From NCBI GenBank assembly GCA_049692915.1, contig JBAVPI010000698.1, positions 1 to 39,322 on the forward strand: a stretch of 39,322 nucleotides of DNA, written 5' to 3'. Below are positions 15,484-36,555 of the stretch, one piece after another (within the stretch, counting starts at the first letter, position 1; each line of letters opens with the position of its first letter). The translations under genes and the position numbers were made by a program. This stretch comes from Pyrinomonadaceae bacterium. GTDB lineage: Bacteria > Acidobacteriota > Blastocatellia > Pyrinomonadales > Pyrinomonadaceae. Below the pieces are notes generated by a model that searched no databases, was not told the origin of the DNA, and was given only the letters and a program-made list of their open reading frames with translations.

Positions 15484-16641
15484 ATGCTATTCAGAACACA
15501 ATCAGCCGCCGTCTACGGCATTGACGCAGACCTCGTTGACATCGAAGTTGACCTCAGCCCTGCGCGCGGCGAATCCGACTCGCCGTCGTCCGTGACCATC
15601 GTCGGCCTTCCCGACCTCGCCGTACGCGAGTCGCGCGAGCGCATCCGCGCCGCGATCAACAACAGCGCCTTCTTCTTTCCCTTTCACAAGACGACCATCA
15701 ACCTCGCGCCCGCAGACGTGCGCAAAGAGGGGGCGAGTTTTGATTTGCCGATTGCCCTCGGCATCCTCGGCGCGAACGGCGACCTCGGCGAAGGGGGCGA
15801 CTTGACGGATGTGCTCTCGGTCGGCGAACTCTCGCTCGACGGGCGCGTGCGTCCCATCCGCGGCGCTTTGCCGGTCGCCATCCGCGCGCGTGACGCGGGC
15901 ATCAAGTCGCTCCTGTTGCCGGAAGAGAACGCCAGCGAAGCGGCGGTCGTGGCGGGCGTGGACGTGTACTCCGTAGCGACATTGCGCGGCGCAGTCGAAC
16001 TCATCGCGGCCCTGCAAGTTAAAGGCGACGACCCCAGACGTCCTTCGCCAATCGCCGTTGATACTTCCGACCTCTTCTCGTCCAGAGCCGATACGGGCGT
16101 CGACTTCCGCGAAGTTTGCGGGCAACTGTCCGCCAAACGTGCGCTCGAAGTGGCAAGCGCCGGTTCACACAACATCCTTCTCATCGGCCCGCCCGGCTCC
16201 GGGAAGACGATGCTCGCCAAGCGTCTGCCGACGATTCTGCCGCCGCTCGAATTCGAGGCCGCGCTGGAGTTGACCAAAATTCATTCGGTCGCAGGATTGA
16301 CGGGACGCACCGGCCTCGTCACAGATCGTCCCTTTCGCTCACCACATCACACCATCAGCGACGCCGGACTGATCGGCGGCGGGGCCGTCCCGCGCCCCGG
16401 CGAAGTCTCGCTCGCGCATCACGGCGTCCTCTTTCTAGACGAGTTACCGGAGTTCGACCGCAGCGTCCTCGAAGTTTTGCGCCAGCCGCTCGAAGACCAA
16501 CGCGTGACGATCAGCCGCGCCGCGATGTCTCTGACGTTTCCCGCATCCTTCATGCTCGCGGCGGCGATGAACCCTTGTGGTTGTGTTGCCCTTTTGCCAC
16601 TTGGGCCGATGCGCTCGGCAAATAATCAAGCTCAATGGTGA
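15484..16641 (+). pseudogene. comM: comM/yifB (Mg-chelatase-like AAA+ competence helicase), 5' about 3/4 only, disrupted by island insertion
   Basis: Lon-like N-domain ([13 protein letters not shown]), Walker [15 protein letters not shown], Walker [12 protein letters not shown], then ...[10 protein letters not shown]. After that come 20 unrelated codons and a stop. The ORF is 385 aa, whereas family members are about 500 aa, and the C-terminal Mg_chelatase_C part is missing from the window. Confidence 0.85.
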
Positions 16642-18076
16642 TGTCCTTCGTACCGACCACGACCTTTTCAACCGTATTCTCAACGATCTGCCGCCGCTCC
16701 TCTGGCTTGAGATTTCCCCAGTTGAGATAAATGCGCTTGCCGGTCTCTACCATTCCATCGGGTGCGAACAGTGCGCGCTCGAGGTGCTCAATCTCGCCTT
16801 GCAGGATCGGCATCTGCTCCCCTATCGCCTCTGCTTGCTCCTCAAGCGGCTTGTACTGCGCGCCAAAACCTTCGCCGCTGATCTGCTCATCCAAGTACAG
16901 CCGCAGAAGCTTGTCCATGTCGCGTTTCATCTGCTTGGCTTTGGCAGTGAGCGATGACAGCAACGCCCGCTTGCCGGAAAGCGCTTCATCGGCCTTTTCC
17001 ATGTAGCGCATAATTTCCTTCGGTGACAAAAAGAAGTTTTGTAGTTCCTTGCAGTACACCTCTTCCAGGTCTATCACCGGTATCTTGTTCCGGCAGGCAA
17101 AGCAGATGTACTTGGGGCTATTGGAGGGAACATAGAGCTTTGTTCCACACTGGCAGTAGGCGAGTCCGGCAAAGAGATGCACGGGCTTTTTTGTGCTAAA
17201 GCGCGGCTGCTGTTTTTGAGCGCGCAGTATCTCGCTGCACTGCTGCCATAGCTCCTCGGAAACGATTGGCTCGACACCGATGAACACCCACTGATCCTCT
17301 GGCTTCATCACCCAGTGTTTTTTCTCACCGAGGCTCCGCGTGTAGTTGGCGCGCCGCTGCCCCTTTGCTATAGGGTCGCGCAGCAGCCGGTCAACCGTGG
17401 TATCGGAAAATCGCCCGCCGCCTCTGGTGCGGTGACCTGCTTCATTGAGGAGCCGAGCCACGGTCTTTTTGCGGCGGTGCTGTAGATAGAGTTCGTACAT
17501 GAGCCGCCTGACCGGTGCTTCGCTCTGGTCAATGATAAGCCTGCGTTCATGCCACCGGTAGCCAAACGGGGCAGCGCCGCCTAAGGGCTTACCGAGGCGT
17601 GCGCGCACGGGGACGGATGCGGCCACGCGTTCGGCGATCTCTTCGCGCTCAAACTGCGTGAGGGCGGCCTGTACGGTGAAGAACATCCGGCCAGCAGGAC
17701 TTGAAGTGTCAATCGCTTCGGCCAGCGAAATTAAATCTGCTCCGAGGTCTTTGAAGATGTCTGCCATGTCGAGCAGCTCTTTGGTGTTACGAGCGAGGCG
17801 GGCAAGCTTTGAGAATATCAGCCCGGAGATGCGTTTGTTTTGAATGTCACTAAGCATCCGCTCCGCCTCTGAGTGATGCATGACTGACTTGCCGGAGACG
17901 GCTTCCAAGTGATACACGGTCACTACCTGCCAGCCTTTGGCCTCGGCGTAGTAGCGGGCGCGCTGCTCGTGGTGCTCGGGGCTATCGCCTTCAGCCTGAT
18001 CGTGCGTTGAGACGCGCACCCAAATGCCGACGCGCTTTGCACCGTCGGTTTGCGGGTGTTGTGCAGTTAATTCCAT
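16550..18076 (-). CDS. Large serine recombinase (integrase)
   Basis: 508 aa. The resolvase catalytic domain is [15 protein letters not shown]...[19 protein letters not shown]...[40 protein letters not shown]. The recombinase domain is [14 protein letters not shown], the zinc ribbon is [24 protein letters not shown], and a coiled-coil tail follows. GGAAGGAG lies upstream of the ATG at 18076. Confidence 0.93.
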
Positions 18077-18428: not shown

Positions 18429-18458
18429 TTCACAAAGAACTATAATTCAAGGTATATT
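18429..18458 (+). promoter_or_regulatory. Sigma70-like promoter candidate for the 1065-aa gene
   Basis: TTCACA (18429-34), an 18-nt spacer, then TATATT (18453-58). A second TATAAT lies at 18441-46. This is the AT-rich divergent region between the integrase module and the large gene. Confidence 0.3.
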
Positions 18459-18528
18459 GCGCCTTCGTATAGACGTAATACAGTGCAGCCACCTGTTCTC
18501 ACCATCCAATCCGAAAGGCTGTTTATCT

Positions 18529-21500
18529 ATGTCTTGGCTAAAAAAACTCTTAAACCCAAACTATCAACAGAAATCTCAACCTGAGCCAACTGGGTCAATC
18601 AACCAAGCAGAGCCGGAAGCAAACCCTGACTATGACCTCATGGCGTCAGTACGAGAATTTGAAGAAATGGAGCGATTAAGGCAGCTTGATGATTTGCGCG
18701 CCGCCTATGGCGAAACGCTTATCATGCTTATTGATCGCCACATTCTGCAAAGAATTGATCGACAAAAAATCTTTGAGCGCCTCGCGCCACCTCCACGTAA
18801 CTTTACCGATGACGCTTCATCGCTCAATGTCATAAAAGTACTGCCGCCGCCCGAAGCTACTTTCGCTGATATGGGACGATTCTGGAATAACCTCCGCGTA
18901 TTCCGGCAACCCTTATCCTTCACCCTCATATCAAGACCGGAACGCATGTTTTTTCGTCTCACTGTCCCTCAAGGTTGCGGCGAGGCCGTAGAAGAACAAT
19001 TAGCAATTCATTTCCCCGCTGCAGTTCCGCTTGTGCCGTCTGAAGACGAACGATGGATGCCTGAGTCGCTGTACTGCGTAAATTTCGCGCCCAAATTTAG
19101 CACCCAGTTTCTCGATCATTCATTTGTCAGTCGCGACCCTTACGCGCAACTATTTTCCACGCTCGACTCCCGCGCTTTCAATGAGGCGGTGGCCGTTCAA
19201 ATTAACAGTTGCCCGCTTCCTGACGACGCACTCGACCAGCTCACGCAGGTAATGAAATGGGAAGACCCTGGGATTCCCTATGAGGTATTCGAGCCATTCG
19301 CCGACGGCATGTGGAGCAGCATTATGCAAGGGGGACTTGATGAGCACCGAAGGGGCACACGTGAATTCTATGAGGGCCTCATCAAGGGCATTGACCGCAG
19401 TCACTACGAGGTAGCAGCTCCTCTGAGACAAGCGCTCTGGCAAGAACTCGCCAGGCAGAAAAAACTGAAAGAAGAATGCGCCGAGATGATTAAGCGTATA
19501 GAGCGGAAAGAGCCGCCTTGGGTCGCTTGCGTCAATGTATACTGCGAACAGATCGAAGTGGCGCGGATGCTGCAACAGTCATTCTTACGGCAGTACGAAA
19601 CGACGGAGCAGCGCTGGGAAGAGATAACGGTAACAACGGAACATTATGACCCTTTGGATCATCCCATTTTCAATTGGTCGCTGGTATCCACAGAAGAACT
19701 TACCAGCCTCGCCCATTTCCCAGCCAGAGGTGTCACCAGTCCCCGTTTAGAAGGGGCATCAATGAAGTCGAAGTTGCCGCCGGAAAGCTTTACTACCGGT
19801 GAGGTGCAGATTGGCGTGAGCGAAGCACGCGGCCAAGTTATGCCCGTCTCCATTCCTGATAGCGTGCGTGCCCGCCACCTTTATATCGTGGGAAAGAGCG
19901 GCAGCGGCAAATCAACTCTGATAACTAATATCGCCGTGCAGGACATTGAACGCGGCGAAGGTGTCTGCGTCATTGACCCGCACGGTGATCTTGTCTCTGA
20001 CCTGCTCGACCACATCCCAGAGTATCGCATCAAAGATACGATCTACTTCAACGTCTCTGACCGCGCCCACCCTATCGGCCTCGATATGATGAGCGCCAAG
20101 AACGAAGCCGAGATAGAGATACTGACCGACGATCTGATTACTACCTTTCGCAGGCTCACCGAGACGTGGGGCGAGCGCATGGAAACGATCTTGCGCTACG
20201 CCTTCAACACGCTCCTCCGCACCCCGGGCGCGACCTTTTTAGACCTTCAAAAGCTCCTCACTAATGAGGGTTGGCGCTCAACTGTTGTACGCAAGATCAA
20301 CTTCGCCCCGCTGACCGACTTCTGGTTTAACCAGTTCGCCAACATGCCGAAGGATGCGACACAGCCGCTACTCTCGCGCATGACCAAGATTGTGCTCTCT
20401 CCGACCCTAAACGCCATCTTCGGCCAGTCACAGAACACGCTTAACTTCAATGACGTGATCCGCAATCGAAAAATACTGCTCATTAATCTCGGAGGCGATA
20501 GCCGGGACCGAAACAACGAGCAGCTTTCTGTTAGCGACGAGATGAAAAAGCTCATCGGCTCTGTCGTCGTTTCGCAGCTTCAACTTGCTGCGATGAGGCA
20601 GGCCAGCATCCCGGAAGAGAAGCGCGTGCCGTGCCGATTCTTCGTTGACGAGTTCCAGAATTTTGTCTCAGGAGCCTTCCCCAAGATTTTAAGTGAAGCG
20701 AGAAAGTACAAGTTGTCGCTGACGGTCGCCCACCAGTACATCTCGCAGCTTGATGAGGCCACGCGCAACGCCGTCTTCGGTAATGTTGGAACGATGATCG
20801 TTATGCCGCTCGGGCAGAAAGACGCGTCCTACTTAGGAGCCGAGTTAGGCGCGTACAAGCCGGAAGACGTGGCGAACCTTTCCCCAGAGCGCCACGAGGC
20901 GCTGTGCCGACCAACGACCATGGCCGCCGATACCTTTTTATTTAGGACGCTCGCCCCAGCCCCCATCACACAGAGTTTCGCCCAGGCAGTCATTGAGCAT
21001 ACAAGGGCTGAGTACAGTACGACGGACGCCGGTGAGGATGTCTTAGAGTTGCCCGCTCCTACCCTGCAGGAATCGGCAATCGCTAAACGACCGATGCGAG
21101 AGACGGAAAAGGTTTTCGCCTCGACTGTAGAGAAGATTTTGCATTTCATCTCACTCGCCGGTTACCTCACGACCGCTCAGATTATCGAGTTGTGCTATTC
21201 GCACTTGGCCGAGACTTCAAAGCGTCCGGCGGCGAGCCGCGACTTGAAGAAACTCACGGATGCGAAAAAACTAAAATCCATTAATTGGGGCGACGGCAAG
21301 GTTTTCTACGCCGGCGGCCAGTGCAATCCGACTGCACACAATGTCGCCATCCGCGATATTCTCATCAGGATTTTGCAGTCAGGATATGAGGCCGCGGAAG
21401 TCAATTTCTCGTCGAGCATCGGCGCGCTATCCCCTGATCTGCTGGTAACGTTTTTGTGTGAGGACGGATCACTCCTTCCCACCTATTGGGAATATGACAC

Positions 21501-21726
21501 CGGCACAGAAGGGATCACCGAAATAATTAAAAAAATCGCCCGCTATGTGCCCCATTCCGCCACCTCTAGGGTAAGCTTTATCTGCACGACGAAAGAGCGT
21601 GTGCAGTCGATTATGAAGGCGACGCAGGCAGACTTTATCGACTACGGCGTTTTAGTTGATTTCGCCAGCCTCAGTACACCGGCGTTTATTTCTCGCACCC
21701 GTACTAATAAATATTCATTCTTTTAA
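18529..21726 (+). CDS. Fusion protein: unknown about 470-aa N-domain + TraD/VirD4-type (FtsK/HerA superfamily) P-loop ATPase + C-terminal Replication-relaxation-family (wHTH + PD-(D/E)xK-like) domain
   Basis: Walker A HLYIVGKSGSGKSTL, then VCVIDPHGDL, Walker B RFFVDEFQNF, then ARKYKLSLTVAHQYISQLD and GNVGTMIV. The C-terminus reads ILHFISLAGYLTTAQIIELCY...SPDLLVTF...YWEYDTGTEGITEIIKKIARY. No TM helix is visible. I prefer the ATG at 18529 (MSWLKKLL, with GAAAGG upstream) over the track TTG at 18457. Confidence 0.85.
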   Translation: MSWLKKLLNPNYQQKSQPEPTGSINQAEPEANPDYDLMASVREFEEMERLRQLDDLRAAYGETLIMLIDRHILQRIDRQKIFERLAPPPRNFTDDASSLNVIKVLPPPEATFADMGRFWNNLRVFRQPLSFTLISRPERMFFRLTVPQGCGEAVEEQLAIHFPAAVPLVPSEDERWMPESLYCVNFAPKFSTQFLDHSFVSRDPYAQLFSTLDSRAFNEAVAVQINSCPLPDDALDQLTQVMKWEDPGIPYEVFEPFADGMWSSIMQGGLDEHRRGTREFYEGLIKGIDRSHYEVAAPLRQALWQELARQKKLKEECAEMIKRIERKEPPWVACVNVYCEQIEVARMLQQSFLRQYETTEQRWEEITVTTEHYDPLDHPIFNWSLVSTEELTSLAHFPARGVTSPRLEGASMKSKLPPESFTTGEVQIGVSEARGQVMPVSIPDSVRARHLYIVGKSGSGKSTLITNIAVQDIERGEGVCVIDPHGDLVSDLLDHIPEYRIKDTIYFNVSDRAHPIGLDMMSAKNEAEIEILTDDLITTFRRLTETWGERMETILRYAFNTLLRTPGATFLDLQKLLTNEGWRSTVVRKINFAPLTDFWFNQFANMPKDATQPLLSRMTKIVLSPTLNAIFGQSQNTLNFNDVIRNRKILLINLGGDSRDRNNEQLSVSDEMKKLIGSVVVSQLQLAAMRQASIPEEKRVPCRFFVDEFQNFVSGAFPKILSEARKYKLSLTVAHQYISQLDEATRNAVFGNVGTMIVMPLGQKDASYLGAELGAYKPEDVANLSPERHEALCRPTTMAADTFLFRTLAPAPITQSFAQAVIEHTRAEYSTTDAGEDVLELPAPTLQESAIAKRPMRETEKVFASTVEKILHFISLAGYLTTAQIIELCYSHLAETSKRPAASRDLKKLTDAKKLKSINWGDGKVFYAGGQCNPTAHNVAIRDILIRILQSGYEAAEVNFSSSIGALSPDLLVTFLCEDGSLLPTYWEYDTGTEGITEIIKKIARYVPHSATSRVSFICTTKERVQSIMKATQADFIDYGVLVDFASLSTPAFISRTRTNKYSFF

Positions 21727-24911: not shown

Positions 24912-25087
24912 CCCATTGATAACAAGCTGATTGATAATCTGCTCAAAGATTATAAAACGCCCGAAGAGATTCTCGGCGACAACGGTCTGCTCAAGCAACT
25001 AACCAAAGCTGTTTTAGAGCGCGATATGCAAGCAGAACTCACGTAGCACCTCGGTTACGAGAAGCATGACGCAGCCGGTGATAATAG
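24912..25087 (+). pseudogene. IS256-family (mutator-type) transposase N-terminal fragment
   Basis: Translation PIDNKLIDNLLKDYKTPEEILGDNGLLKQLTKAVLERDMQAELT*HLGYEKHDAAGDNS matches the conserved N-terminal block of the family (GLLKQLTKxxLExxLxAELTxHLGYEKH). It has an in-frame TAG, and the rest of the gene is absent. Confidence 0.7.
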
Positions 25088-25109
25088 CGTAACTCTCGCA
25101 ACTGCAAAT

Positions 25110-25658
25110 CCCGTCGCCGAGAATGTGTTAGCGCGTCTGTTCCGCGCCACGCGCCTGGATGAGGTCTGGACTACGGACATCACCTACCTCTGGACTTCGG
25201 AAGGATGGTTCTACTTGGTCATCTTTCTTGATTTGTACGCGCGGTTCGTCGTCGGGTGGGCGGTCTCGGAGAGTCTTGAGGTCGGATTCGTCGAGCGGGC
25301 GTTTCTCCAAGGGCAACGACGGCGCGCAGGGGGCGTCTCGCCGCTCATCCATAGTGATCGCGGTTGCCAGTACGTCAGCACAGCCTTCAGAGAAAAGCGC
25401 GTGGCGTGGGGCTGCGCGCAGAGTATGAGCTGCCAGGGCAACTGTTGGGACAATGCGGTGACGGAAAGCTTCTTTGGCATCTTGAAGAGCGAGATGATTC
25501 ATCACGAACACTTTGCGACCAGACAGGAAGCGACGGACAAACTGTTCGATGGCATTGATGTCTTTTACAACCGGATGAGGATTCATTAGGCCACAGAATA
25601 CTTCGCACCGGAGGAGTATGAAGCGCGCTATCAAGCGCACTTGAAACAAGTAGCGTGA
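25110..25658 (+). pseudogene. IS3-family transposase (OrfB, DDE/rve core) C-terminal fragment with a premature stop
   Basis: VWTTDITYLWTSEGWFYLVIFLDLYARFVVGWAV...LIHSDRGCQYVS...GNCWDNAVTESFFGILKSE...FYNRMRIH*ATEYFAPEEYE. The D, D, E residues are present, OrfA and the N-terminal part are missing, and there is an internal TAG at 25587-89. The left boundary is approximate. Confidence 0.8.
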
Positions 25659-25741: not shown

Positions 25742-27253
25742 TTATTCGTAAAGGCGTTCTGCTTCTTTCCCAGCCACTAAGGTTGGATACACTCGTTGCT
25801 GACGATTGTGATAGTTATTCCAGAACGTCGTTGTGAGTAGTTCATCGTTTGTCTGAAGTCGCACCACCGAATCAGTGAGCTTTTCATGCAACTTAAGAAA
25901 GCCCCGACGAGTCTCATGATGTCGAACTTCGTACTCCATCTCATTTGTGAAGATGCGCCGTACTAGTTCGGTTACCTCTTCGATGTTGTCGCTGACGATT
26001 GCTCCCACAGCCACTCCTGAGCGGAAGTCGATTAGACGCGAAAGAGGATGCACATTTCTGTAGAAGCTTGTTTTTACCCCTTTGTCACAATAGAAGATTA
26101 CGGGCTTTCCGAGACTAAGGGCCATAGCTGCCTCGGCGTCTTTGCCATAGCTTTCTTTTTCACCCTCGGTGTAAATTAGTACCTTCGCACATTTCACCAT
26201 TAAGCATTCAATTAGACCCTTGTCCTCGTGGCCTTTTGCCGCACTCATAGTAGGATCGAAGTAGCGCAGATGGAAATCTTTGAGGCGAGGGTCTCCAAAA
26301 ATCTTTTCGCACGCCTCTGCCATATCTCTGAAGTTCTGCCGCTTTCGCATACTGGTCGCAACATACACATCGAGATCGTTCACCATTGAAAGATAGAGCG
26401 CGGTGTTCTTAGTTGCCTTGGACCTAGCCGCTTGAAACCTATTGAATTGCTCATCAAATCGTCGATTCAGTTCCTTCTCGTCAGACAACGTTGTGTCCAA
26501 TACGTCCTCATACGAGAGGAGTAATTGCTCCCGGTTGTTATCCTTAGCAACCCCTTCAAGAAGCTGACGAAATGTTATTGAGGCACCGTGATGCTTCTTC
26601 AGGCCATCGAGCAGGAGATTGCGCGCTTCTTCGCTATCCGCTGGAATCTCGCCAAACGTCTTGCACGCCATTTCGGAGATCAGATAACGATTATCTTTTG
26701 CAATTTCCTCAAGGGGAAGAGCAGGCCCTCGTTGCGAAATCGCTGATGTATCAAAACGCTTTTGCTTGTAGAATGCCGTCAACTCTTCGATAGTTTTTGA
26801 TCGGAGAGCCCGGAACGCTGCCGCCACGTTTCCGAAGTATAAAAGCCCATCTACATACAAGCGATAAAGACCCCAGCGGAGATGATCATGTGATTGCACG
26901 CTTTGATGGCTACCGCGGGTCATCGATTCGACGTAGTAAGGTAAGCGAGCTACATTATAGGTGTGCTCGGGCTGCTCGAGCCAGTAGTACTTAAAAAAAC
27001 CATCAGACATACTCCCCGCATTTGAAAGGACTAACAACTGATTTAGCTGTACCTTTGAAAGCGGCACTTGGTCGAGACGCCTCAGTTGATTAAAGACCTC
27101 ATCCTCCATTTGCTCGTGCACAAAATGGCCAAGTCCCTCGGTGCCAAACCGAAAGCATTCATACTTACCAGCTAAGTCCTTTTTGGATAATTGTTGCATG
27201 TCCACTCTTTGAGCAAGCCTCATTCGGAACCGTTGTTGAGCACCCAAGTTCAA
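25742..27253 (-). CDS. Hypothetical 503-aa protein; unknown N-terminal half, C-terminal half resembling a nucleoside 2-deoxyribosyltransferase-type Rossmann domain
   Basis: The C-terminal half reads DLDVYVATSMRKRQNF...KGLIECLMVKCAKVLIYTEGEKESYGKDAEAAMALSLGKPVIFYC. This fits the layout of that fold: an early beta-strand, an acidic residue after the strand-4 region, then GKPV. The start is uncertain: TTG at 27253, or ATG at 27223 or 27199. A TATAAT lies just upstream on the minus strand. Confidence 0.75.
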   Translation of the reverse strand: MNLGAQQRFRMRLAQRVDMQQLSKKDLAGKYECFRFGTEGLGHFVHEQMEDEVFNQLRRLDQVPLSKVQLNQLLVLSNAGSMSDGFFKYYWLEQPEHTYNVARLPYYVESMTRGSHQSVQSHDHLRWGLYRLYVDGLLYFGNVAAAFRALRSKTIEELTAFYKQKRFDTSAISQRGPALPLEEIAKDNRYLISEMACKTFGEIPADSEEARNLLLDGLKKHHGASITFRQLLEGVAKDNNREQLLLSYEDVLDTTLSDEKELNRRFDEQFNRFQAARSKATKNTALYLSMVNDLDVYVATSMRKRQNFRDMAEACEKIFGDPRLKDFHLRYFDPTMSAAKGHEDKGLIECLMVKCAKVLIYTEGEKESYGKDAEAAMALSLGKPVIFYCDKGVKTSFYRNVHPLSRLIDFRSGVAVGAIVSDNIEEVTELVRRIFTNEMEYEVRHHETRRGFLKLHEKLTDSVVRLQTNDELLTTTFWNNYHNRQQRVYPTLVAGKEAERLYE

Positions 27254-27691
27254 GCGTTTTGATATTATAACTTATGACCCTGCGAAGCTCTACTTCGCTG
27301 ACTTCTCGATGTCGGCGTAGCAGACGCTGCTCTATTACTACGCCGAAGACGAGCGTATCTTGTACTAGGTGGTATGTCTCTTGGCGCAATCCAACATCTG
27401 AGTACTTCTATTTCTAATTTAGCGCAAACTGCATATGCCACCTCTTCATCCTTTGACGAATATTGATTTTAAGCAGCGTAGAATTTATTGTCACCGCTTG
27501 AAGGGTAGCCATTCCGGGCAACATCCGTCAGTTGGCTTTCCAAGCAAACATAATCTTTGATTCGGATATGCGTCTATACAGCCATGTGCATAGACAAAGG
27601 AAGCGTGAGAGTGAAGGTAAAGAAGCAGTGCATATCTGATAACACAAATACAAACGTAAACAGAGGAAAGTAACGTTCCTTCTTTTCAAAT

Positions 27692-27746: not shown

Positions 27747-28778
27747 CTAGCCAGCCACGGCGTAGGGCTGAAGATACTTGCCGAGTCGCGCAGTCAGTTC
27801 ATACTGGCGTACCGGGACAAGCTGCTTGAAGGTTGTCGTAAACGCATTGGACAGCGACCAGATAGTTCGCCTCTTGAACTCCTCATGCTGCGGCTCAAAG
27901 TATCCCGTGTGTACCAGCTTCATCAGGTTCCTTGGAAACTTCTGTTCCAGAAACGCTTTGTAGATGATGAGGCGGGCTTGGTCATCTGAGAGGTCGCGTT
28001 CCTGCATAAACTGGATGCTTGCTTTCAGCGGCTCAAAGTTTCGCTGAATCCGGTCTACACCGATGGAGAGCGAATCCACCAGATCGAAGTGCTTGGAATG
28101 CTTGGCGAGCAGCGGCTTGAAGTCGCCAGAGAGTGCCATATTGTCGCAGACAAACACGCGGTAGCCTGCCACCATCCCGAGCCGCATTGACCGGTCATTG
28201 GCATTTCTGAGGCCAATAGCGAACCGAACGCCGAAACAATCAGCGTTTAATTCAAGGAGCGCAAAGAGCCGCATTCCGTCGGGCGAGACGGCATAGTCAT
28301 CGCGCACAATCGAGATATGGCGGAAGGCTAGTGCTTCTTCAAGCTGATCAATGAGACGGGCGTGTGGGATCGGCTGGAAGGTAGCTGTCGCCTCCGCCAC
28401 GGGCAGATTTGCCAGCTCGGGCCTTGTGATTTTGCTTGCGCCAGCATGTACCATCAGGCGGGCATCGGGAAGTGATGATGCAGCCTCCGGTTCGGCGGCA
28501 GTCTGATCTATGCATGCCGGCAGATCATCGTCACGCTCGGTGTGAATTGCTTCTTCCAACTGACTATCAAGGTCATCTTCCATTGGAGAGGGAAGCAAAT
28601 CATTAGCAGAGTCGCTCGCCCCTTCGATCTGCGATACCTGATCTAATAGCTGCTCTGGCGGCACGGGAGGCATCTCTTCCTGTGCCTCATTCGGCGGTGG
28701 TACGATAGTAAGCTTTCGTGGCTTACTGCGAGATGTCGTGGATTGTTTCGGTGCTATCTGTTTCAGTTTCCGGCTCAT
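27747..28778 (-). CDS. DUF932-family protein (typical of conjugative/mobilisable elements and phages)
   Basis: FAIGLRNANDRSMRLGMVAGYRVFVCDNMALSGDF matches the NSxDGS...G..R.VC.N core of DUF932. The N-terminal 110 aa are acidic and disordered. The ATG at 28778 has AGGAGGA upstream (the track ORF extends to 28814). Confidence 0.85.
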   Translation of the reverse strand: MSRKLKQIAPKQSTTSRSKPRKLTIVPPPNEAQEEMPPVPPEQLLDQVSQIEGASDSANDLLPSPMEDDLDSQLEEAIHTERDDDLPACIDQTAAEPEAASSLPDARLMVHAGASKITRPELANLPVAEATATFQPIPHARLIDQLEEALAFRHISIVRDDYAVSPDGMRLFALLELNADCFGVRFAIGLRNANDRSMRLGMVAGYRVFVCDNMALSGDFKPLLAKHSKHFDLVDSLSIGVDRIQRNFEPLKASIQFMQERDLSDDQARLIIYKAFLEQKFPRNLMKLVHTGYFEPQHEEFKRRTIWSLSNAFTTTFKQLVPVRQYELTARLGKYLQPYAVAG

Positions 28779-28950
28779 CGGTTTCCTCCTCTGTAAGTTC
28801 TGAAAGCATTTCATCGAGGCACTGCTCGTGAAAGGCTTTTCGTCGTTCGAGTCTGCTGTGAAGCGGCTTCCCGCACCACTTGCACTCTTTGTGGTTAGTG
28901 CTCATCAATGCGCGCTTGACTATCAGCCACCGCGCCCAGCGGGGAGTCAT
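28723..28950 (-). CDS. 75-aa zinc-knuckle protein with acidic tail (hypothetical)
   Basis: AAGGAGG lies 7 nt upstream of the ATG at 28950. MTPRWARWLIVKRALMSTNHKECKWCGKPLHSRLERRKAFHEQCLDEML + EEETDEPETETDSTE. It overlaps the 3' end of the upstream gene by 56 nt. Confidence 0.5.
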   Translation of the reverse strand: MTPRWARWLIVKRALMSTNHKECKWCGKPLHSRLERRKAFHEQCLDEMLSELTEEETDEPETETDSTETIHDISQ

Positions 28951-29212
28951 GACGTTCCCTCCTTTGCGGCATCTCTTTCCGCTCGCGCGTGATTGCATCA
29001 AAGCACGGATCGCAGTACCCGCTTTGCGGGTTACTACAGCAGGCGTGGCAGAGCATGCGGGCGCAGGCATCGCAGCAAATCCAATTACGCGGCGAAGTCT
29101 CTTTTATGACGACCACACCCACGCCGTAGAATTCACTTTCAAAGACGCCTAAGTGTCCGTGCAGCGGCCTCCCGCAGGCCTCGCAGGTGCCTTCGCTTTC
29201 TTTCTCACACAT
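28895..29212 (-). CDS. 105-aa Cys-rich protein with four CxxC pairs (hypothetical double zinc ribbon)
   Basis: GGAGGA lies 7 nt upstream of the ATG at 29212. CEAC...CDAC...CHAC...CDPC are spread over 70 residues. Confidence 0.6.
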   Translation of the reverse strand: MCEKESEGTCEACGRPLHGHLGVFESEFYGVGVVVIKETSPRNWICCDACARMLCHACCSNPQSGYCDPCFDAITRERKEMPQRRERHDSPLGAVADSQARIDEH

Positions 29213-29359: not shown

Positions 29360-30604
29360 TTAGAAAGGGGCATCAGGCGGAAGGGTGCGTGCGCTGAAGG
29401 GTCGAGAGACTGCGCCGTCAATCATGAGTTTGACGTAGATGTGATGGCTCGGCAGATTGACGAGATCAGTTGCCCGAAAGTCCGGGAAGAATTCCCCTTC
29501 CAGTAGTTCAGCATCAGTCAGCCCGACCCGAAACGCGATGATCGTGCCGACGTTGCCAAGAACAGCGTCCCGTACCTGTTCGTCGATCTGCGACAGGTAC
29601 TGGTGGGCGATGATCAAGTTGAGACGGTACTTCCGCAGTTCCGAAAGCATCCCGGCCAGACTCAGCGTGGTAAAGGTGTGGAACTCATCGAGGTACAGAT
29701 AGAAGTCGCGGCGCATCTCTTCGGGAGTATCTGCCCGCCGAAGCGCAGCCAGTCCCATGCTTGAAACGAGGAGCGAACCGAGAAGCTGCGTGGTGTCCTC
29801 GCCAAGCTTTCCCTTTGCGAGATTAACGAGCAACAGCTTTCCCTCATCCATGATCCCGCGCAGGTTGAATGAACTCTTTGGCCGGGTCAGGATGCGGCGA
29901 AGCACCGGGTCTGCAAGGAAGGCTCCGACTTTGTTTTGTACCGGAGCAATCACCTCGGAGCGAAAGCGCGGCGTGTACGCTTCATACTCGGTTGTCCAGA
30001 ACCTACGGACTTGGTCGTTCCGGCAACTGGCAAGGGCGGCTTTGCGATATGCGGCGTCATCAAACAGGCGTAGCACATCGGCAAGCGTAGCCTCCGGCTG
30101 ATCAAGCAGGAGCAGTAAGGCGTTCCGTAGGATGTACTCCAGCCGCGGCCCCCACGAATCGCTCCATAGCTTGCGGAAAACACCGACGAGACCTGATGCA
30201 GCGAGAGCGCGCTTTGACTGCGGCACGTCTGAGAGAGGGTTAAAGCCCATGGACTGGGTGCGGTCGGTGGGATCAAAGTAGATCACATCTGCCTGCCGCG
30301 CCATGGGCACCGAGAGCGCAACGCGCTCCACAAGATCGCCGTGCGGATCAAGCAGGGCTGCTCCCCGACCCGATGCAATGTCTTGCCGGATGAGCCGCTC
30401 AAGCAGCGTGGACTTGCCGGTGCCGGTCTTGCCGATCAGATAGAGGTGCGACCTGCGGTCGGCGTGCTTGATGCCAAAGGGAGTCAGGTGATTGCGAAAC
30501 GTAGCTTCGGCGAAAAAGGAAATAGGCTGCGGAGATTTGTCTTGCTGCGGTGGCATGGTGAGTTGGTGCTTAGCGAATATCTTTGATGGTAGCAGGCACG
30601 GCAC
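29360..30604 (-). CDS. Stand-alone TraD/VirD4-type P-loop ATPase, paralogue of the central domain of the 1065-aa protein
   Basis: Walker A HLYLIGKTGTGKSTL, LLDPHGDL, Walker B FYLYLDEFHTF, LRKYRLNLIIAHQYLSQID, GNVGTIIAF. It is colinear with residues about 470-850 of the fusion protein and has no TM helix. The start is GTG at 30604 or ATG at 30556. Confidence 0.88.
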   Translation of the reverse strand: MPCLLPSKIFAKHQLTMPPQQDKSPQPISFFAEATFRNHLTPFGIKHADRRSHLYLIGKTGTGKSTLLERLIRQDIASGRGAALLDPHGDLVERVALSVPMARQADVIYFDPTDRTQSMGFNPLSDVPQSKRALAASGLVGVFRKLWSDSWGPRLEYILRNALLLLLDQPEATLADVLRLFDDAAYRKAALASCRNDQVRRFWTTEYEAYTPRFRSEVIAPVQNKVGAFLADPVLRRILTRPKSSFNLRGIMDEGKLLLVNLAKGKLGEDTTQLLGSLLVSSMGLAALRRADTPEEMRRDFYLYLDEFHTFTTLSLAGMLSELRKYRLNLIIAHQYLSQIDEQVRDAVLGNVGTIIAFRVGLTDAELLEGEFFPDFRATDLVNLPSHHIYVKLMIDGAVSRPFSARTLPPDAPF

Positions 30605-30736: not shown

Positions 30737-31684
30737 TTATGCCGCTTGAGCCAGCCGCATTTCTGCGAGGCGGACATAGCGCGGATTCAGCTCGATGCCG
30801 ATGTAGTGTCGCTTGAGCCTACGCGCTGCAAGTGCGGTCGTGCCTGACCCCATAAACGGATCAAGCACCACGCCGCCTTCCGGGCAGCCCGCTTCGATGG
30901 GAGTCTCTATGAGCGTCTGGGGGAAGACGGCGTAGTGCTTGCCCGGATAGGGCTTGGTTGGGATGCGCCACACGCACCGCTTATTTCTGCCGCGGGAAAG
31001 TATTCGCTGCCTGCTTGCTTCCGCACTCTGTGGGTTGATGGCAGAGATGTAAGGGTCGCCGTAGATTCGTTTCCGCTTGCTCTGAGGGTTGATAAGAGGC
31101 CGGAGCAGACGCGGTTTGTCGACAAGCAGCTCAAATTGCTGCTTGAAGTAGTAACGACGCTCCTTGACGAAGAACAGCACCTTCTCAAAGTCAACGGTGA
31201 ATCGGTCATGTGCGCTCGACGGCATACAGTTGGGCTTGTACCAGATGATTTCATTGCGGAGCATCCATCCCCTCTGGCACATCTCGATTGAAAAGCGCGC
31301 AGGAATGAGAGCCAGCGACTTTTTCTTAAGGCCAATGCCCGAAGCCATCTGCCGAAACGGTGATCGGGATGCGTCCGTAAACTGCTCAGATGAACGGCTC
31401 CGCACCGGCGAGTCGCCGGCATACGTGTCTCCAAGGTTCACCCAGCAGGTGCCCGAAGGTTTCAGCACCCGCCCTACCTCATCGAACACCGCGCACAGTT
31501 TTTCAAGGTACAAATCAAGCGACGGTTCAAGTCCGATCTGGCCGCGCACCCGGTAATCGCGAAGACGCCAGTACGGAGGGCTCGTAATCACGCAGTCAAT
31601 GCTGTCTGGCGGAAAGTGCCGGAGGGTAGCGCGTGCGTCGCCGCACAGTATGCGGTCAAGATAGGGCTTAAGGGATGAGGCCAT
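30737..31684 (-). CDS. Beta-class DNA methyltransferase, SPPY motif IV (N4-cytosine or N6-adenine)
   Basis: IDCVITSPPYWRLRDY (motif IV) precedes VLDPFMGSGTTALAARRLKRHYIGIELNPRY (motif I). This is the beta-class order. Confidence 0.9.
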   Translation of the reverse strand: MASSLKPYLDRILCGDARATLRHFPPDSIDCVITSPPYWRLRDYRVRGQIGLEPSLDLYLEKLCAVFDEVGRVLKPSGTCWVNLGDTYAGDSPVRSRSSEQFTDASRSPFRQMASGIGLKKKSLALIPARFSIEMCQRGWMLRNEIIWYKPNCMPSSAHDRFTVDFEKVLFFVKERRYYFKQQFELLVDKPRLLRPLINPQSKRKRIYGDPYISAINPQSAEASRQRILSRGRNKRCVWRIPTKPYPGKHYAVFPQTLIETPIEAGCPEGGVVLDPFMGSGTTALAARRLKRHYIGIELNPRYVRLAEMRLAQAA

Positions 31685-31721: not shown

Positions 31722-32396
31722 TTAGGCGATTTGGCGCAGTGTCACGGTCTGAGCGTTGAGCCGCGCTTCTGCAATCTTGCAGTAGGTGGGGTCGAGTTCA
31801 ATGCCGATATATCCCCTACCCAATTCCCGTGCTGCGACGGCAGATGAGCCTGAGCCGAGGAATGGATCAAGGACAATATCGCCTACCTCGCTGCTGTGTT
31901 CGATCAATGGCTTAAGAAGTTCAACAGGCTTTTCGTGCGGATGCTGCACGTACCGCGTCCGCACACAGCGGATGAGATTGGGAAACCCAGGTCTGCGGTA
32001 GATAGGACGGCCTTTCTCAAGGACTACGATGCACTCGTAGCGTCTGCGGAAACCATGTCCCCTCCCCTGCAGCACCTTATCCCAGATAATGATGTCCCTG
32101 AGCTTGTATTTCGTATAGGTTTGGAAAAAGGTGCTGACAAAACCGAGATGCCGCGTGCCGCAGAACACATACGCCGCGCTATTGGCTTTCAGCACGCGGT
32201 ATGCTTCCGATAGTGCAGAGAGACCGACGAGCGGATGTTCATTGCCGAGGATGGTGCGGTTATGTACCCCGTAGCCGATGTTATCCCCATACGGCGGGTC
32301 AGTGACGATCAGGTCAACGCTTTTATCCGGCAGGCTTTTGAGGACAATGAGGGCGTCGCCGCAGATGAGGCGGCCTGAGAAGGGAAGGGATATCAT
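31722..32396 (-). CDS. Beta-class DNA methyltransferase, DPPY motif IV (probably N6-adenine)
   Basis: VDLIVTDPPYGDNIGYG (motif IV) precedes VLDPFLGSGSSAVAARELGRGYIGIELDPTY (motif I). Compact at 224 aa. Confidence 0.9.
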   Translation of the reverse strand: MISLPFSGRLICGDALIVLKSLPDKSVDLIVTDPPYGDNIGYGVHNRTILGNEHPLVGLSALSEAYRVLKANSAAYVFCGTRHLGFVSTFFQTYTKYKLRDIIIWDKVLQGRGHGFRRRYECIVVLEKGRPIYRRPGFPNLIRCVRTRYVQHPHEKPVELLKPLIEHSSEVGDIVLDPFLGSGSSAVAARELGRGYIGIELDPTYCKIAEARLNAQTVTLRQIA

Positions 32397-33935: not shown

Positions 33936-34913
33936 TCAGTCAACCGGCGTGTTTGTGTTGATATATACGCCGTAGATGGTTTCGCTTAAGTAGACTCTCG
34001 TCAGCATCCACCTCCCATCAGTAAAACGACTGAAAACAGCCGCCGCCTGGCCCGAATAGGTCAGTGGAGTGCGATTGTCCATGCCTCCGATGTAGTGATA
34101 ATTGGTAAGGTGAAAATTCGCTTGCGCTGCATTCTGCGCAGGAATTTCCTGCACCCCTATCAGCCCTGATACCGCCCCACTCCCCGCCCACTTCTCTAAT
34201 ACTCGCTGAGCACAGGGAGTGGTTAGTGTACCGGAGCATTTCACATATGAATTTGCAGGCGACGGTGGAGTCGCAAGGGTTGCCGCAGGTACTGCCGTCG
34301 TATTTGCATTTGCAGTAACGGCTCCCTCTGACCCAGATTGTTTGGCCTGACTCTCTGCTTCAACGATCAGATTTATGTTGGCCTTGTCAGTTGCAGTTAC
34401 CATGCTGTCTTTGAACTCGTCGCTTGGCGTATACCACGCACAGGTGTTGAAGTAATCGCCGAGGCCGGGGCTATCATACTTTCGTCCATAGCGGGCAAAG
34501 TGGACATTTCGCAGCACTCGCAGTTCAGTTGCCGAAAGCCCTGTAGTGTCACTTTCCTGCAAGGCTTCTCCTCGCAGAATCTTCTCTTCGACGCGCTTTG
34601 CTTTCTCGCCTAGACTTAGAGTTGGAGTTGGGGCTGGGGTAGAAACTGGGGCCGCTAGCTGCACCTGATTTTGGTAATACCGGTATGCCACTACTGCGCC
34701 AAGTGCGAGTAGCACAAGGATCGCGATTCCTATAATCGGCCCTAGATGCTTGGCCGCGGGGTGCTGACTGCGCGCCGGTGCGGAAGGGGCGTTTGCAGTC
34801 AGCGCGGAGCCAGTAAGATCGAAGGCACAGTGCTTACAGAATCGTGCATCGGTACCTGCGATGCCGCTGCACTGCGGACACAGCTTCGGCGATATCTCAC
34901 CAGATTCGCTCAT
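33936..34913 (-). CDS. Zinc-ribbon / TM / YARHG-domain protein
   Basis: N-terminal CPQCSGIAGTDARFCKHCAF, TM IIGIAILVLLALGAVVAY, then LRVLRNVHFARYGRKYDSPGLGDYFNTCAWYTP, which is the YARHG motif. Confidence 0.8.
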   Translation of the reverse strand: MSESGEISPKLCPQCSGIAGTDARFCKHCAFDLTGSALTANAPSAPARSQHPAAKHLGPIIGIAILVLLALGAVVAYRYYQNQVQLAAPVSTPAPTPTLSLGEKAKRVEEKILRGEALQESDTTGLSATELRVLRNVHFARYGRKYDSPGLGDYFNTCAWYTPSDEFKDSMVTATDKANINLIVEAESQAKQSGSEGAVTANANTTAVPAATLATPPSPANSYVKCSGTLTTPCAQRVLEKWAGSGAVSGLIGVQEIPAQNAAQANFHLTNYHYIGGMDNRTPLTYSGQAAAVFSRFTDGRWMLTRVYLSETIYGVYINTNTPVD

Positions 34914-34977
34914 CTCACTTTCCTTTCGATACTACCGATTGATACGGTAAGTGAAATACGGTTTTCGGCTATCTCTG

Positions 34978-36555
34978 CTAGGCCGTTGCCAGTGCCGCCA
35001 TGAGTTCATCTGCAAGCTTGCCAGACATCTGAGGGTTGATCTTTGGATCGCCCCACGGCTCTGTTTTCAGCGCCTTGTACCGCTTCTGCTCGGTGACGGA
35101 TACCCTGATGGAAGTCGTATTTGGGCCGTCTTTAATGAGCGCGATTTGTATTCGAGTTCCTGTTTGACGGTATCCTCCGGTAATGGTCATGCCGGTGAGA
35201 ATTTGACCCGTTTCCTTACTGGCGCTTTCAATCATCAGTCCCCGTCGTTTGAGAAAGGTAAGCACCCGCTCATACATTTGGTCTGGGGGCTGATTGATCT
35301 TGATAATGACGCTGCCTGATGAGTCTTGCACTTTTGATTGCTCTACTTCACGCTCCTGCCGGTCACGAGCAGTCGCTGCTGCCGGTGCGTGTTCAGAGGC
35401 GGACGCTGGTGCTTTAGATACTTCTGGCACAGGCGTCTGCGATTCTGTATGTGCCGGTGCGGTGATAGAGAAGTCCCACACGGGACTAAGCAGCACGCCT
35501 TCCCCCTGCCGGGAGGTCATATCCTTTAGTGATACTTTTTGTATTTTTGAGGTGGGACGAAGCACCAGCCCATACTCTCCAAGGGGCAGCGGCTGCTGCG
35601 GTTCAACTTCGATCCGCCCTCGGCCTAGTTTGTTTGTGCGAATAGGAACTATCTCTTCGATAAAGTTGAGTTCCGTCCGCGCATCGGACTGGAAATTCTT
35701 GAGCTTGGTTTTTTGCGCGCTCACGAGCCGCCAGTTGTTTTTAGTGGGATTGACTTTGACAAGCACTGGATCAAACTCATCAGGGTTAGCGCCGGTAACG
35801 TCTCCGAAGGCAACCTCAAATTTGGGCGTAGTGGTCGAGATAATATTCGGTGACCTGTTTCCATCAAGGGCATAGATAAATGTGTACGAAGGGTCTCTGC
35901 CAAACACTTTTGGCAGACTCATGATTGCCATTCCCGCCATGCCGACAATGGGAATTGCCGCCATTCCAGCAGATGAAAGGATTGCTCCTGACGCAGCTTT
36001 AATAATCACGTCGCTCGCAACGTTTTGAACGGTGGCATCAGCGAGAATAGTAGGTATATTGTCACCCTTGGCTTTGGTTTGAATGACCGTTGGAAACGCT
36101 GCTGCTACAGCGGTCTTAGATTTATCAATGAAGAGGACATACGGCTGAGTCGTCTGCTCTGTGCCACTGGTGGTAGAAAGCAGCGATGATTCACTGGTAG
36201 GTGGGCGCTGTGTAGTAGCAGCCGGAGTGGTTTGGTGCCGCGCTGATGCTGTCTGCATTGCCTCAATAATCTTTTGGCTGAGTCCAGCCTCTTTCAGCTT
36301 AAAGAGCGCATCTAGCGACACGTCGAATTGGGTTTCATTGCTCTGAATCGCATTTATAATTACGCTCTCGGCGAAGCCGCTTTTGACCATGCGGGTAATG
36401 TCAGCATTGGTTAGAGGTTTCTTGTCTTGCGCAGCATATCCATTCAAAGCCGCCTTTGCTTGTTGACACAGTGGTGTTAAGGCAGGGGTAAACATACAGA
36501 CAGCAGAGAGGAGTGACACAGTTAGGAAGCGAGTGACTGGGCTACTGATACTCAT
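34978..36555 (-). CDS. Secreted/periplasmic hypothetical protein (525 aa)
   Basis: Signal peptide MSISSPVTRFLTVSLLSAVCMFTPALTPLCQQAKA. AAGGAG lies 6 nt upstream of the ATG. It is followed after 64 nt by the YARHG gene on the same strand. I see no catalytic motif. Confidence 0.75.
   Translation of the reverse strand: MSISSPVTRFLTVSLLSAVCMFTPALTPLCQQAKAALNGYAAQDKKPLTNADITRMVKSGFAESVIINAIQSNETQFDVSLDALFKLKEAGLSQKIIEAMQTASARHQTTPAATTQRPPTSESSLLSTTSGTEQTTQPYVLFIDKSKTAVAAAFPTVIQTKAKGDNIPTILADATVQNVASDVIIKAASGAILSSAGMAAIPIVGMAGMAIMSLPKVFGRDPSYTFIYALDGNRSPNIISTTTPKFEVAFGDVTGANPDEFDPVLVKVNPTKNNWRLVSAQKTKLKNFQSDARTELNFIEEIVPIRTNKLGRGRIEVEPQQPLPLGEYGLVLRPTSKIQKVSLKDMTSRQGEGVLLSPVWDFSITAPAHTESQTPVPEVSKAPASASEHAPAAATARDRQEREVEQSKVQDSSGSVIIKINQPPDQMYERVLTFLKRRGLMIESASKETGQILTGMTITGGYRQTGTRIQIALIKDGPNTTSIRVSVTEQKRYKALKTEPWGDPKINPQMSGKLADELMAALATA

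Follow-up and report, generated by a model that had tools for sequence, protein, structure and literature searches.

A putatively mobile single-gene family combining a new predicted helical fold with a predicted nucleoside 2-deoxyribosyltransferase-superfamily domain

Among the genes on a 39,322-nucleotide contig from a Pyrinomonadaceae bacterium of the phylum Acidobacteriota (JBAVPI010000698.1 of assembly GCA_049692915.1; the whole contig is referred to below as the window) is a minus-strand gene at positions 25742..27199 that encodes a protein of 485 amino acids. We lean modestly toward reading its product as a self-contained enzyme that travels between genomes as a single gene and belongs to the N-glycosidase class of the nucleoside 2-deoxyribosyltransferase (NDT) superfamily. 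The family to which it belongs is undescribed, and its members, mobile as single genes, join a known catalytic superfamily to a helical half that is new. With more than 2000 homologues in a search of 5.8 billion proteins, this is a large unnamed family, and an exhaustive profile search resolved 936 clusters at 50% identity. Public sources that name any member all give "hypothetical protein".

The catalytic assignment comes mainly from the predicted structure. An AlphaFold2 model built on 27 homologues (predicted local distance difference test, pLDDT, 81.6; predicted template modeling score, pTM, 0.83) lays the protein out as an all-helical half (residues 1 to about 272), an alpha/beta domain (278 to about 420), a small beta-sheet/helix portion reaching to about 465 and a disordered tail. 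Taken together, the alpha/beta domain and the small subdomain after it comprise residues 273-466 (25802..26383, minus strand). When the C-terminal half was compared with the PDB by Foldseek over about 150 columns, the matches were DNPH1, MilB/BcmB, BlsM and NDTs, with probabilities of 0.91-0.99 and template modeling scores normalized to the target (TM-target) of 0.56-0.66. Among the predicted viral structures of BFVD, the best matches were phage NDTs (probability 1.0, TM-target 0.68, root-mean-square deviation 3.5 Å). The model thus shows a C-terminal domain with the fold of the NDT superfamily, and the deoxyribosyltransferase-like fold proposed for this half in an earlier note, made from the sequence alone, holds up.

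At the level of sequence the signal is weak and consistent. The window protein has no match to the PF05014, PF15891 or PF18306 profiles of Pfam at E<=1, and in PHROGs it gave a weak match to PHROG 355, a phage NDT, with an E value of 0.096. When 49 diverse family members were each scanned against Pfam at a permissive threshold, the only sub-threshold families to recur were SLOG cluster4 (14/49, best E 0.011) and Nuc_deoxyrib_tr/tr2 (5/49, best E 0.027). Because profile searches against PDB sequences were negative and the Pfam matches fall below threshold, the link to the superfamily is one of fold plus weak, consistent sequence signal, short of formal family membership.

A putative active site can be laid out by comparison with DNPH1 (Rcl), a hydrolase of hydroxymethyl-dUMP (hm-dUMP) in which a Ser/Arg loop binds the 5'-phosphate. 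A DNPH1-family profile, made from a low-diversity and mostly mammalian alignment, was compared by hhalign with the C-terminal profile of the family and gave 136 collinear columns; the family profile could not be aligned by the same program with a single DNPH1 sequence. Since the hhalign score alone is non-significant (E 0.07), it is collinearity, invariance and fold that carry the residue mapping. The human DNPH1 sequence was checked against PDB entries, among which 8qhq carries the E104Q form. In this mapping, beta-1 and the loop after it, Y279-V-A-T282-S283-M284-R285 (26345..26365, minus strand), correspond to Y24-F-C-G-S28-I29-R30 of DNPH1, the segment S350-Y-G352-K353-D354-A-E356 (26132..26152, minus strand) corresponds to S98-L-G100-V-G-Y-E104, and the family's G-K365-P aligns with N-K112-R. 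Across the 49 members, which reach down to 26% identity, Y279, M284, R285, G352, K353 and E356 are invariant, and T282 and S283 are nearly so. In the AlphaFold2 model these putative active-site residues fall where they would be expected, on beta-1, in the loop that follows it and at the first turn of the helix behind beta-3.

The C-terminal motifs quoted in the earlier note are all present and lie in the most conserved part of the family. That note had also pointed to a conserved glutamate in EKESYGKDAE; by collinearity with E104 of DNPH1 the relevant residue is the last of that stretch, E356, which is the predicted catalytic nucleophile. NDT and DNPH1 typically have a tyrosine hydrogen-bonded to the catalytic glutamate, a feature associated with 2'-deoxy specificity (PMC11204291). 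Further invariant residues have no counterpart in DNPH1, namely D277, K327, E331, K353, H384-P-L and R447, which hints at some difference in detail from DNPH1, either in the substrate or in an oligomeric active site.

Of the characterized enzymes, DNPH1 is like the family in fold (Foldseek probability 0.94-0.99) and in the collinear order of its motifs, which comprise a Tyr on beta-1, an S-(I/M)-R loop, S-x-G-x-x-x-E and (N/G)-K before beta-4 (hhalign E 0.07). It is unlike the family in being a single domain of about 150 amino acids, whereas here the domain makes up the C-terminal 40% of a 485-amino acid protein that adds a helical half of 270 residues and an extra beta subdomain. The family also lacks an above-threshold match to PF05014 and has the extra invariant residues just listed. 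The cytidine monophosphate (CMP) and hydroxymethyl-CMP N-glycosidases MilB, BcmB and BlsM are the top structural matches (4ohb, 4jel, 4jem, 4jen and 5vto; probability 0.82-0.99), and they act on nucleoside 5'-monophosphates, as the family would by the activity we infer for it. In contrast to the family's gene, which has no conserved neighbors, theirs are located in biosynthetic clusters. MilB reportedly has a Phe at the position of the Tyr, which is invariant in the family as Y279.

The N-terminal half (residues 1-272; 26384..27199, minus strand) is specific to the family in the AlphaFold2 models. The earlier note could recognize nothing in it, and neither can we: Pfam and NCBIfam gave no match, no transmembrane, nuclease or other effector signature was seen, and the half modeled alone (pLDDT 78) had no fold match in the PDB, the best Foldseek hit having an E value of 2.2 and probabilities reaching at most 0.12. 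Its conserved motifs are KVQLNQLL, SDGFFxYYW, WGLYRxYVDGLLYFGN and RGPxL...DDRYLISEMACKTFG. The last of these, the RGP...DDRYLISEMACK segment at residues ~157-183, is the best conserved part of the half. Residues 151-180 have a pLDDT of 78-92 in the full-length model versus 52-56 in the half alone, a comparison in which the alignment depths also differed. Because the segment is modeled confidently only when the catalytic domain is present, it may pack against that domain, which we put forward as a weak inference from the models. The N-terminal half varies more than the C-terminal half over the wider set of 49 members. It is probably a family-specific module for specificity or regulation, rather than a sensor of variable phage proteins.

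At the other end of the protein is a tail, QQRVYPTLVAGKEAERLYE (25745..25801, minus strand), which is predicted to be disordered (pLDDT <50 for residues 466-485). Its ending, ...AAGKEAERLQE or ...AGKEAERL(Y/Q)E, is kept across the clade of the window protein and is absent from the Terriglobia-type clade. Such conservation suggests a clade-specific interaction or regulatory peptide.

The extent of the gene calls for a correction. The ORF listing of the window gives a minus-strand open reading frame (ORF) of 503 codons from a TTG start at 25742..27253, and the earlier note accordingly described a 503-amino acid protein. The frame exists as described; its real start, however, is probably further in. 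Homologues from the large protein search are nearly all about 485 amino acids long and span 96% of the query, and in the alignment they begin at the ATG at 27199, the ORF's codon 19. As DNA, the 54 nucleotides from TTG to ATG are shared with the closest relative (L090) alone; two other relatives (L005 and L088) have unrelated sequence there. Because the homologues begin at codon 19 and the intervening stretch is not conserved as coding sequence, the coding sequence is most likely 25742..27199, with 485 codons and a TAA stop (25742..25744), and ATG 27199 is preferred over TTG 27253. The 18 extra codons (27200..27253, minus strand) are then probably an untranslated 5' leader. The ratio of nonsynonymous to synonymous substitution rates (dN/dS) is 0.04-0.09 against relatives in unrelated genomic contexts, and these sequence comparisons indicate an intact gene under strong purifying selection.

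Upstream of the leader codons, on the same strand, is a promoter-like element (27264..27292) read from the sequence, which may serve the gene. It consists of TAGAGC (27287..27292), a 17-nucleotide spacer and TATAAT (27264..27269); the TATAAT-like box of the earlier note is therefore an exact one. The element lies inside a leader of about 90 bp that the gene shares with its closest homologue. A generic promoter and terminator scan, which performs at chance level in this region, missed the TATAAT at 27264..27269 and found no terminator for the gene. An Rfam search of the window and the 5' region returned no riboswitch or known RNA. Monocistronic transcription of the gene is plausible.

Relatives of the gene are rare and scattered. 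Of roughly 185,000 species-representative genomes, 143 (about 0.08%) encode one, and these relatives span more than 12 phyla at identities of 47-71%. The 80 loci listed of the 143 are all from metagenome-assembled genomes (MAGs) or uncultured isolates, and they cover Acidobacteriota, Planctomycetota, Dehalococcoidia, Alpha- and Gammaproteobacteria, Actinomycetota, Elusimicrobia, Spirochaetes, Bacteroidota, Armatimonadota, Nitrospinota and an Asgard archaeon. In 61 of 77 loci the guanine-plus-cytosine (GC) content of the gene is more than 3 points below that of its flanks, with a median difference of -8.5 points, and it is higher in 2/77. The window copy follows the same pattern, as the earlier note had observed, with a GC content of 0.475 versus 0.541 for the neighboring DUF932 gene, 0.568 for a transposase (rve) fragment on its other side, 0.51 for the surrounding island and 0.62 for the chromosomal part of the window (the first 16.5 kb).

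What moves appears to be the gene by itself. Where closest relatives occur in different contexts, the DNA they share is the ORF together with about 90 bp upstream and about 25 bp downstream, and no flanking repeats or cassette structure were seen around the gene. A conserved operon was considered and rejected: clustering of the flanking ORFs of 81 loci gave no recurrent neighbor, the 150 immediate neighbors fall into 117 Pfam families of which none occurs more than 3 times, and no small conserved ORF is found in the flanks of the main sub-family. Integration into islands associated with transfer RNA (tRNA) genes was likewise rejected, as tRNA genes lie near the loci at the frequency expected by chance. 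The picture is of a strongly constrained single-gene unit that has been acquired horizontally many times, and the "stand-alone" description given to the gene in the earlier note fits it well. A separate observation concerns an Abditibacterium MAG with a complete chromosome (L003/L010, 9368-12288), in which a family member has rplQ on one side and truA on the other, within the ribosomal-protein/alpha-operon region. That site is an unusual landing place for an AT-rich foreign gene.

A divergent sister sub-family, with about 26-31% identity, has the same two-domain layout and the same catalytic residues, and it comes with a partner. Directly downstream and on the same strand is a small ORF of about 60-96 amino acids with the motif L(T/S)WEE(K/Q)NPxxY(L/I)Y and a charged tail. 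By a hidden Markov model (HMM) it is present in 52 of the 79 loci with enough sequence (L095-L179; for example L095 9605-9895 and L112 4215-4448), in none of the main sub-family loci and not in the window. This "LTWEEKNP" ORF has no Pfam or PADLOC match, and the divergent relative itself has no PADLOC match. The partnership suggests that the enzyme can run as a two-gene module, of which the clade of the window protein is the self-contained version. At one sister locus (L095, 6340-7988) a ParA/CbiA-like ATPase of 364 amino acids and a 185-amino acid protein lie upstream and form a tight same-strand trio with the homologue, an arrangement found in 4/85 loci; a GajA/OLD nuclease and a type I HsdR are within 6 kb.

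From these features a mechanism may be proposed for what would be a two-part cytoplasmic enzyme. The C-terminal domain would cleave the N-glycosidic bond of a 5'-phosphorylated nucleotide, probably a 2'-deoxy one, a preference suggested because the Tyr of NDT and DNPH1, here Y279, goes with 2'-deoxy substrates. E356 would act as nucleophile or general base, with Y279 beside it, and the T-S-M-R loop, together with S350, would bind the phosphate, as in DNPH1 and MilB rather than as in nucleoside-specific transferases. The helical N-terminal half would pack on the catalytic domain and either shape the choice of substrate or keep the enzyme in check. The activity would then alter the nucleotide pool, acting on a deoxynucleoside monophosphate (dNMP) or a modified dNMP, with nicotinamide mononucleotide (NMN) or NAD-type substrates as alternatives. 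As for its role, the gene may be accessory cargo that manipulates nucleotide pools in conflicts with phages or other mobile elements. Among the biological roles we favor this conflict role tentatively, and by a narrow margin over accessory nucleotide sanitation.

The genomic neighborhood gives this role partial encouragement. About 10-12 of the 150 immediate neighbors (about 7%) match PADLOC models, including type I and type II restriction-modification (R-M) systems, Shedu, a dGTPase, TIR-TM and others. A homologue with 85% identity to the window protein (L088, 5925-10326) lies 33 bp downstream, on the same strand, of a short prokaryotic Argonaute (short pAgo) and a TIR-APAZ protein, a pair of SPARTA type. 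Co-transcription with that pair is possible at this locus, and the association is not recurrent. Other close relatives are near Schlafen/AlbA_2 proteins, near a type I R-M system with AbiEi, or beside an IS3 element. The L088 locus also has a tyrosine integrase and a Schlafen/AlbA_2 protein nearby. The earlier note had called the gene a candidate stand-alone nucleotide effector and had suggested looking for its homologues in defense islands. The stand-alone part of that proposal holds; the conflict part is not demonstrated: about 10-12 of 150 neighbors are defense-like, many loci are housekeeping ones, the conservation of the family is unusual for a defense gene, the protein has no PADLOC match, and the homologues do not cluster consistently with defense genes. 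They are not embedded in nucleotide-salvage operons either, and the C-terminal fold is not one unrelated to the deoxyribosyltransferases.

Several results weigh against a mobile N-glycosidase with a role in conflict. Pfam, NCBIfam and PADLOC searches with the window protein gave no significant match, which places it in no curated family, and neither sequence nor profile searches against PDB sequences gave a match. The E value of 0.07 for the DNPH1 comparison is non-significant when taken alone. The most conserved active-site loops are modeled with moderate to low confidence (pLDDT about 65 for residues 341-360 and about 46-52 for 381-400), a pattern that in the model would fit loops that become ordered only upon ligand binding or oligomerization, as in NDT enzymes in which a neighboring subunit completes the active site. 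Searches of sequenced phages, plasmids and IMG/VR viral contigs found no family member, and tRNA genes are no more frequent near its loci than chance predicts. The window sequence itself is present in one soil metagenome DNA run only. With regard to conflict, the defense-like location (10-12/150) is suggestive and inconsistent, PADLOC has no model for the protein, most neighbors are ordinary genes, one member lies between rplQ and truA, and the cross-phylum conservation of the family is far above that of typical defense proteins.

Much of this evidence can be read in favor of an accessory metabolic enzyme, the alternative that survives best. The protein would be a regulated, "sanitizing" nucleotide 5'-monophosphate nucleosidase that removes a non-canonical or surplus nucleotide, with an N-terminal half used for oligomerization or allostery and no part in conflict. 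Precedents exist in DNPH1, which acts on hm-dUMP, and in the LOG-family enzyme PpnN, which acts on nucleoside monophosphates (NMPs). High cross-phylum conservation with low dN/dS is typical of enzymes whose substrate is a universal small molecule, and the mostly ordinary cellular neighbors, the member in a ribosomal-protein cluster, the lack of a PADLOC match, the absence from phages and plasmids and the DNPH1-type catalytic motif would all suit such a function. Against it, the gene occurs in only about 0.08% of species genomes with a patchy spread across domains, is systematically AT-richer than its hosts and is never found in a nucleotide-metabolism operon. Close relatives moreover lie in islands with defense systems and insertion sequence (IS) elements, and the window copy is itself island cargo. 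On this balance we judge the metabolic alternative rather unlikely, and we retain it as the chief competitor of the conflict role.

A fuller version of the conflict role can be drawn, and we offer it as a speculative and rather unlikely reading. The family would be an undescribed single-gene immunity module, widespread in uncultured soil and sediment bacteria and present in an Asgard archaeon, in which a new helical fold gates a DNPH1/MilB-like N-glycosidase. Upon infection the enzyme would destroy a nucleotide that the invader needs, the most intriguing candidates being modified dNMPs specific to phages, such as hydroxymethyl-dCMP (hm-dCMP) or hm-dUMP, or else bulk dNMPs or NMN/NAD. The sister clade would use its "LTWEEKNP" partner as an inhibitor or adaptor.

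The closest described architecture among immune systems is that of ThsI, the effector of type VIII Thoeris, which has a "CMP hydrolase" domain and a helical TPR domain, is activated by cyclic ADP-ribose (cADPR) and is paired with a TIR gene (bioRxiv 10.64898/2025.12.03.692087). Compared by description, the two are alike in joining a helical, non-catalytic part to a MilB/DNPH1-type domain and in a proposed manipulation of nucleotide pools in phage defense; they are unlike in that ThsI is always with a TIR protein (ThsB) and is abundant in Pseudomonadota, whereas the family is stand-alone and occurs in uncultured soil and sediment phyla. One could imagine that the window protein is an orphaned or trans-acting effector of this kind, whose helical sensor binds a TIR-made signal such as cADPR and thereby activates the MilB/DNPH1-like half, and whose own TIR partner has decayed. 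In line with this, a truncated remnant of a TIR-domain gene (…SSKDEEVAYAVCAKLEIEVLRCWIAPRDIPP…; …LRCWIAPRDIPP…) lies at 27349..27468 on the minus strand, directly upstream of the gene and on the same strand, between it and the DUF932 gene. The remnant is preceded by an in-frame stop and matches TIR_2 with an E value of 0.003 over profile positions 5-42 of 122, below the gathering score. Together with the relative that lies 33 bp downstream of a TIR-containing system, this is what would speak for a ThsI-like effector.

The comparison does not carry much further. No recurrent TIR neighbor, and hence no ThsB-type operon, was found in the 81 loci or in further close relatives, and membership in the ThsI group fails because a TIR gene, which defines the operon, is not a recurrent partner. 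The closest relative lacks the remnant, and the TIR of L088, which is part of the short-pAgo system, bears no sequence relation to it. A "TIR-X-Y three-gene system" considered for that locus was rejected as well: X is the short pAgo, the TIR protein is its TIR-APAZ partner, X is no paralogue of the window protein's homologue family and the pair is not recurrent. Neither the window protein nor the 49 members gave a TPR or CMP-hydrolase-type Pfam match. An origin as a ThsI-like effector is thus improbable.

A second immune comparison is the NDT-like effector of Retron-Eco1 (Ec86), which hydrolyzes NAD+ and is held inactive until triggered. It shares with the family an NDT-superfamily domain, which there serves as a defense effector, and it demonstrates that NAD+ as well as nucleotides can be hydrolyzed by this fold. 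It differs in needing a reverse transcriptase and multicopy single-stranded DNA (msDNA), whereas no reverse transcriptase is among the neighbors of the family's loci and Rfam recognizes no known RNA in the window or the 5' region. The effector is also absent from the top Foldseek matches in the PDB.

The SLOG cluster4 (PF18306) and LOG-PpnN group resembles the family in its weak Pfam signal (14/49), in the logic of its G-x-x-x-E motif and in the lower-ranked type-II LOG structure, which Foldseek found in the PDB with a probability of 0.77; it differs in a best E value of 0.011 that stays below threshold and in a TM-target of 0.42 versus about 0.6 for the NDT/DNPH1 group. PpnN carries extra regulatory domains. 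That the C-terminal domain is a non-catalytic, SLOG-type ligand sensor, as in ThsA, with the novel N-terminal fold as the actual effector is the least probable alternative of all, since SLOG cluster4 is the commonest weak Pfam match but Foldseek ranks the catalytic NDT, DNPH1 and MilB structures above LOG/SLOG (0.99 versus 0.77), the Tyr/Glu/Ser-Arg constellation is invariant, and the N-terminal half has no effector signature and is the less conserved of the two.

Manipulation of the nucleotide pool is an established theme in immunity, with dCTP deaminases, dGTPases, NADases, the NDT-like retron effector and the "CMP hydrolase" Thoeris effector as examples. If the conflict role is right, the family would add to this theme a large, cross-phylum and unannotated group. 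Under a metabolic role the family would stand as the bacterial equivalent of the DNPH1 type of nucleotide sanitation, a subject that has also been little explored. In either case the family would define a new Pfam-level family and, with a 270-residue half that has no structural precedent, a new fold. Because the enzyme works as a single gene, its function should be easy to test by heterologous expression.

Turning to the window itself, the gene lies in an island whose left junction can be placed at 15484..18076. There a truncated comM-type Mg-chelatase gene (15484..16641, plus strand) meets and overlaps the end of an opposite-strand gene for a large serine recombinase with Resolvase and Recombinase domains (16550..18076, minus strand). 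The comM-type product matches the Mg_chelatase profile only to position 163 of 207 and has no C-terminal domain. From this junction on, GC drops from about 0.62 to about 0.50, and the following 20 kb hold two TraD/VirD4-like coupling ATPases, a DUF932 gene, two DNA methyltransferases, helix-turn-helix (HTH) proteins and IS debris. Because of the truncated comM, the serine recombinase, the fall in GC and the content of the island, the gene would appear to be cargo of a mobile element integrated into comM, whose right end would lie beyond the window.

The two transposase remnants beside the gene, which the earlier note had likewise recognized, are both on the plus strand. The nearer is a fragment of an IS3-family transposase (rve) at 25125..25589, convergent with the gene (Pfam rve 5e-19, rve_2 5e-11). 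The other is an N-terminal fragment of a Mutator/IS256-family transposase with an internal stop at ~24948..25088 (Transposase_mut E 1.5e-5, 24.5 bits versus a cut-off of 21).

Other island genes may be noted for completeness. At 33936-36555 on the minus strand are a YARHG-domain protein of 325 amino acids and then a 525-amino acid protein whose N-terminus resembles a signal peptide and which matches no family; both are low-GC cargo of the island. Upstream of the DUF932 gene (27747-28814), two overlapping small ORFs on the minus strand (28723-29212) encode Cys-rich, zinc-ribbon-like sequences with weak matches to Zn_ribbon_Top1 and DUF6011, and the two frames cannot both be real. The DUF932 gene and the N6/N4 DNA methyltransferase genes (30737-31684 and 31722-32396) lie between or beside the coupling-ATPase genes at 18457-21726 (plus strand, 1089 amino acids) and 29360-30604 (minus strand, 414 amino acids), which also match the PADLOC model "mad8" with E values of about 1e-17.

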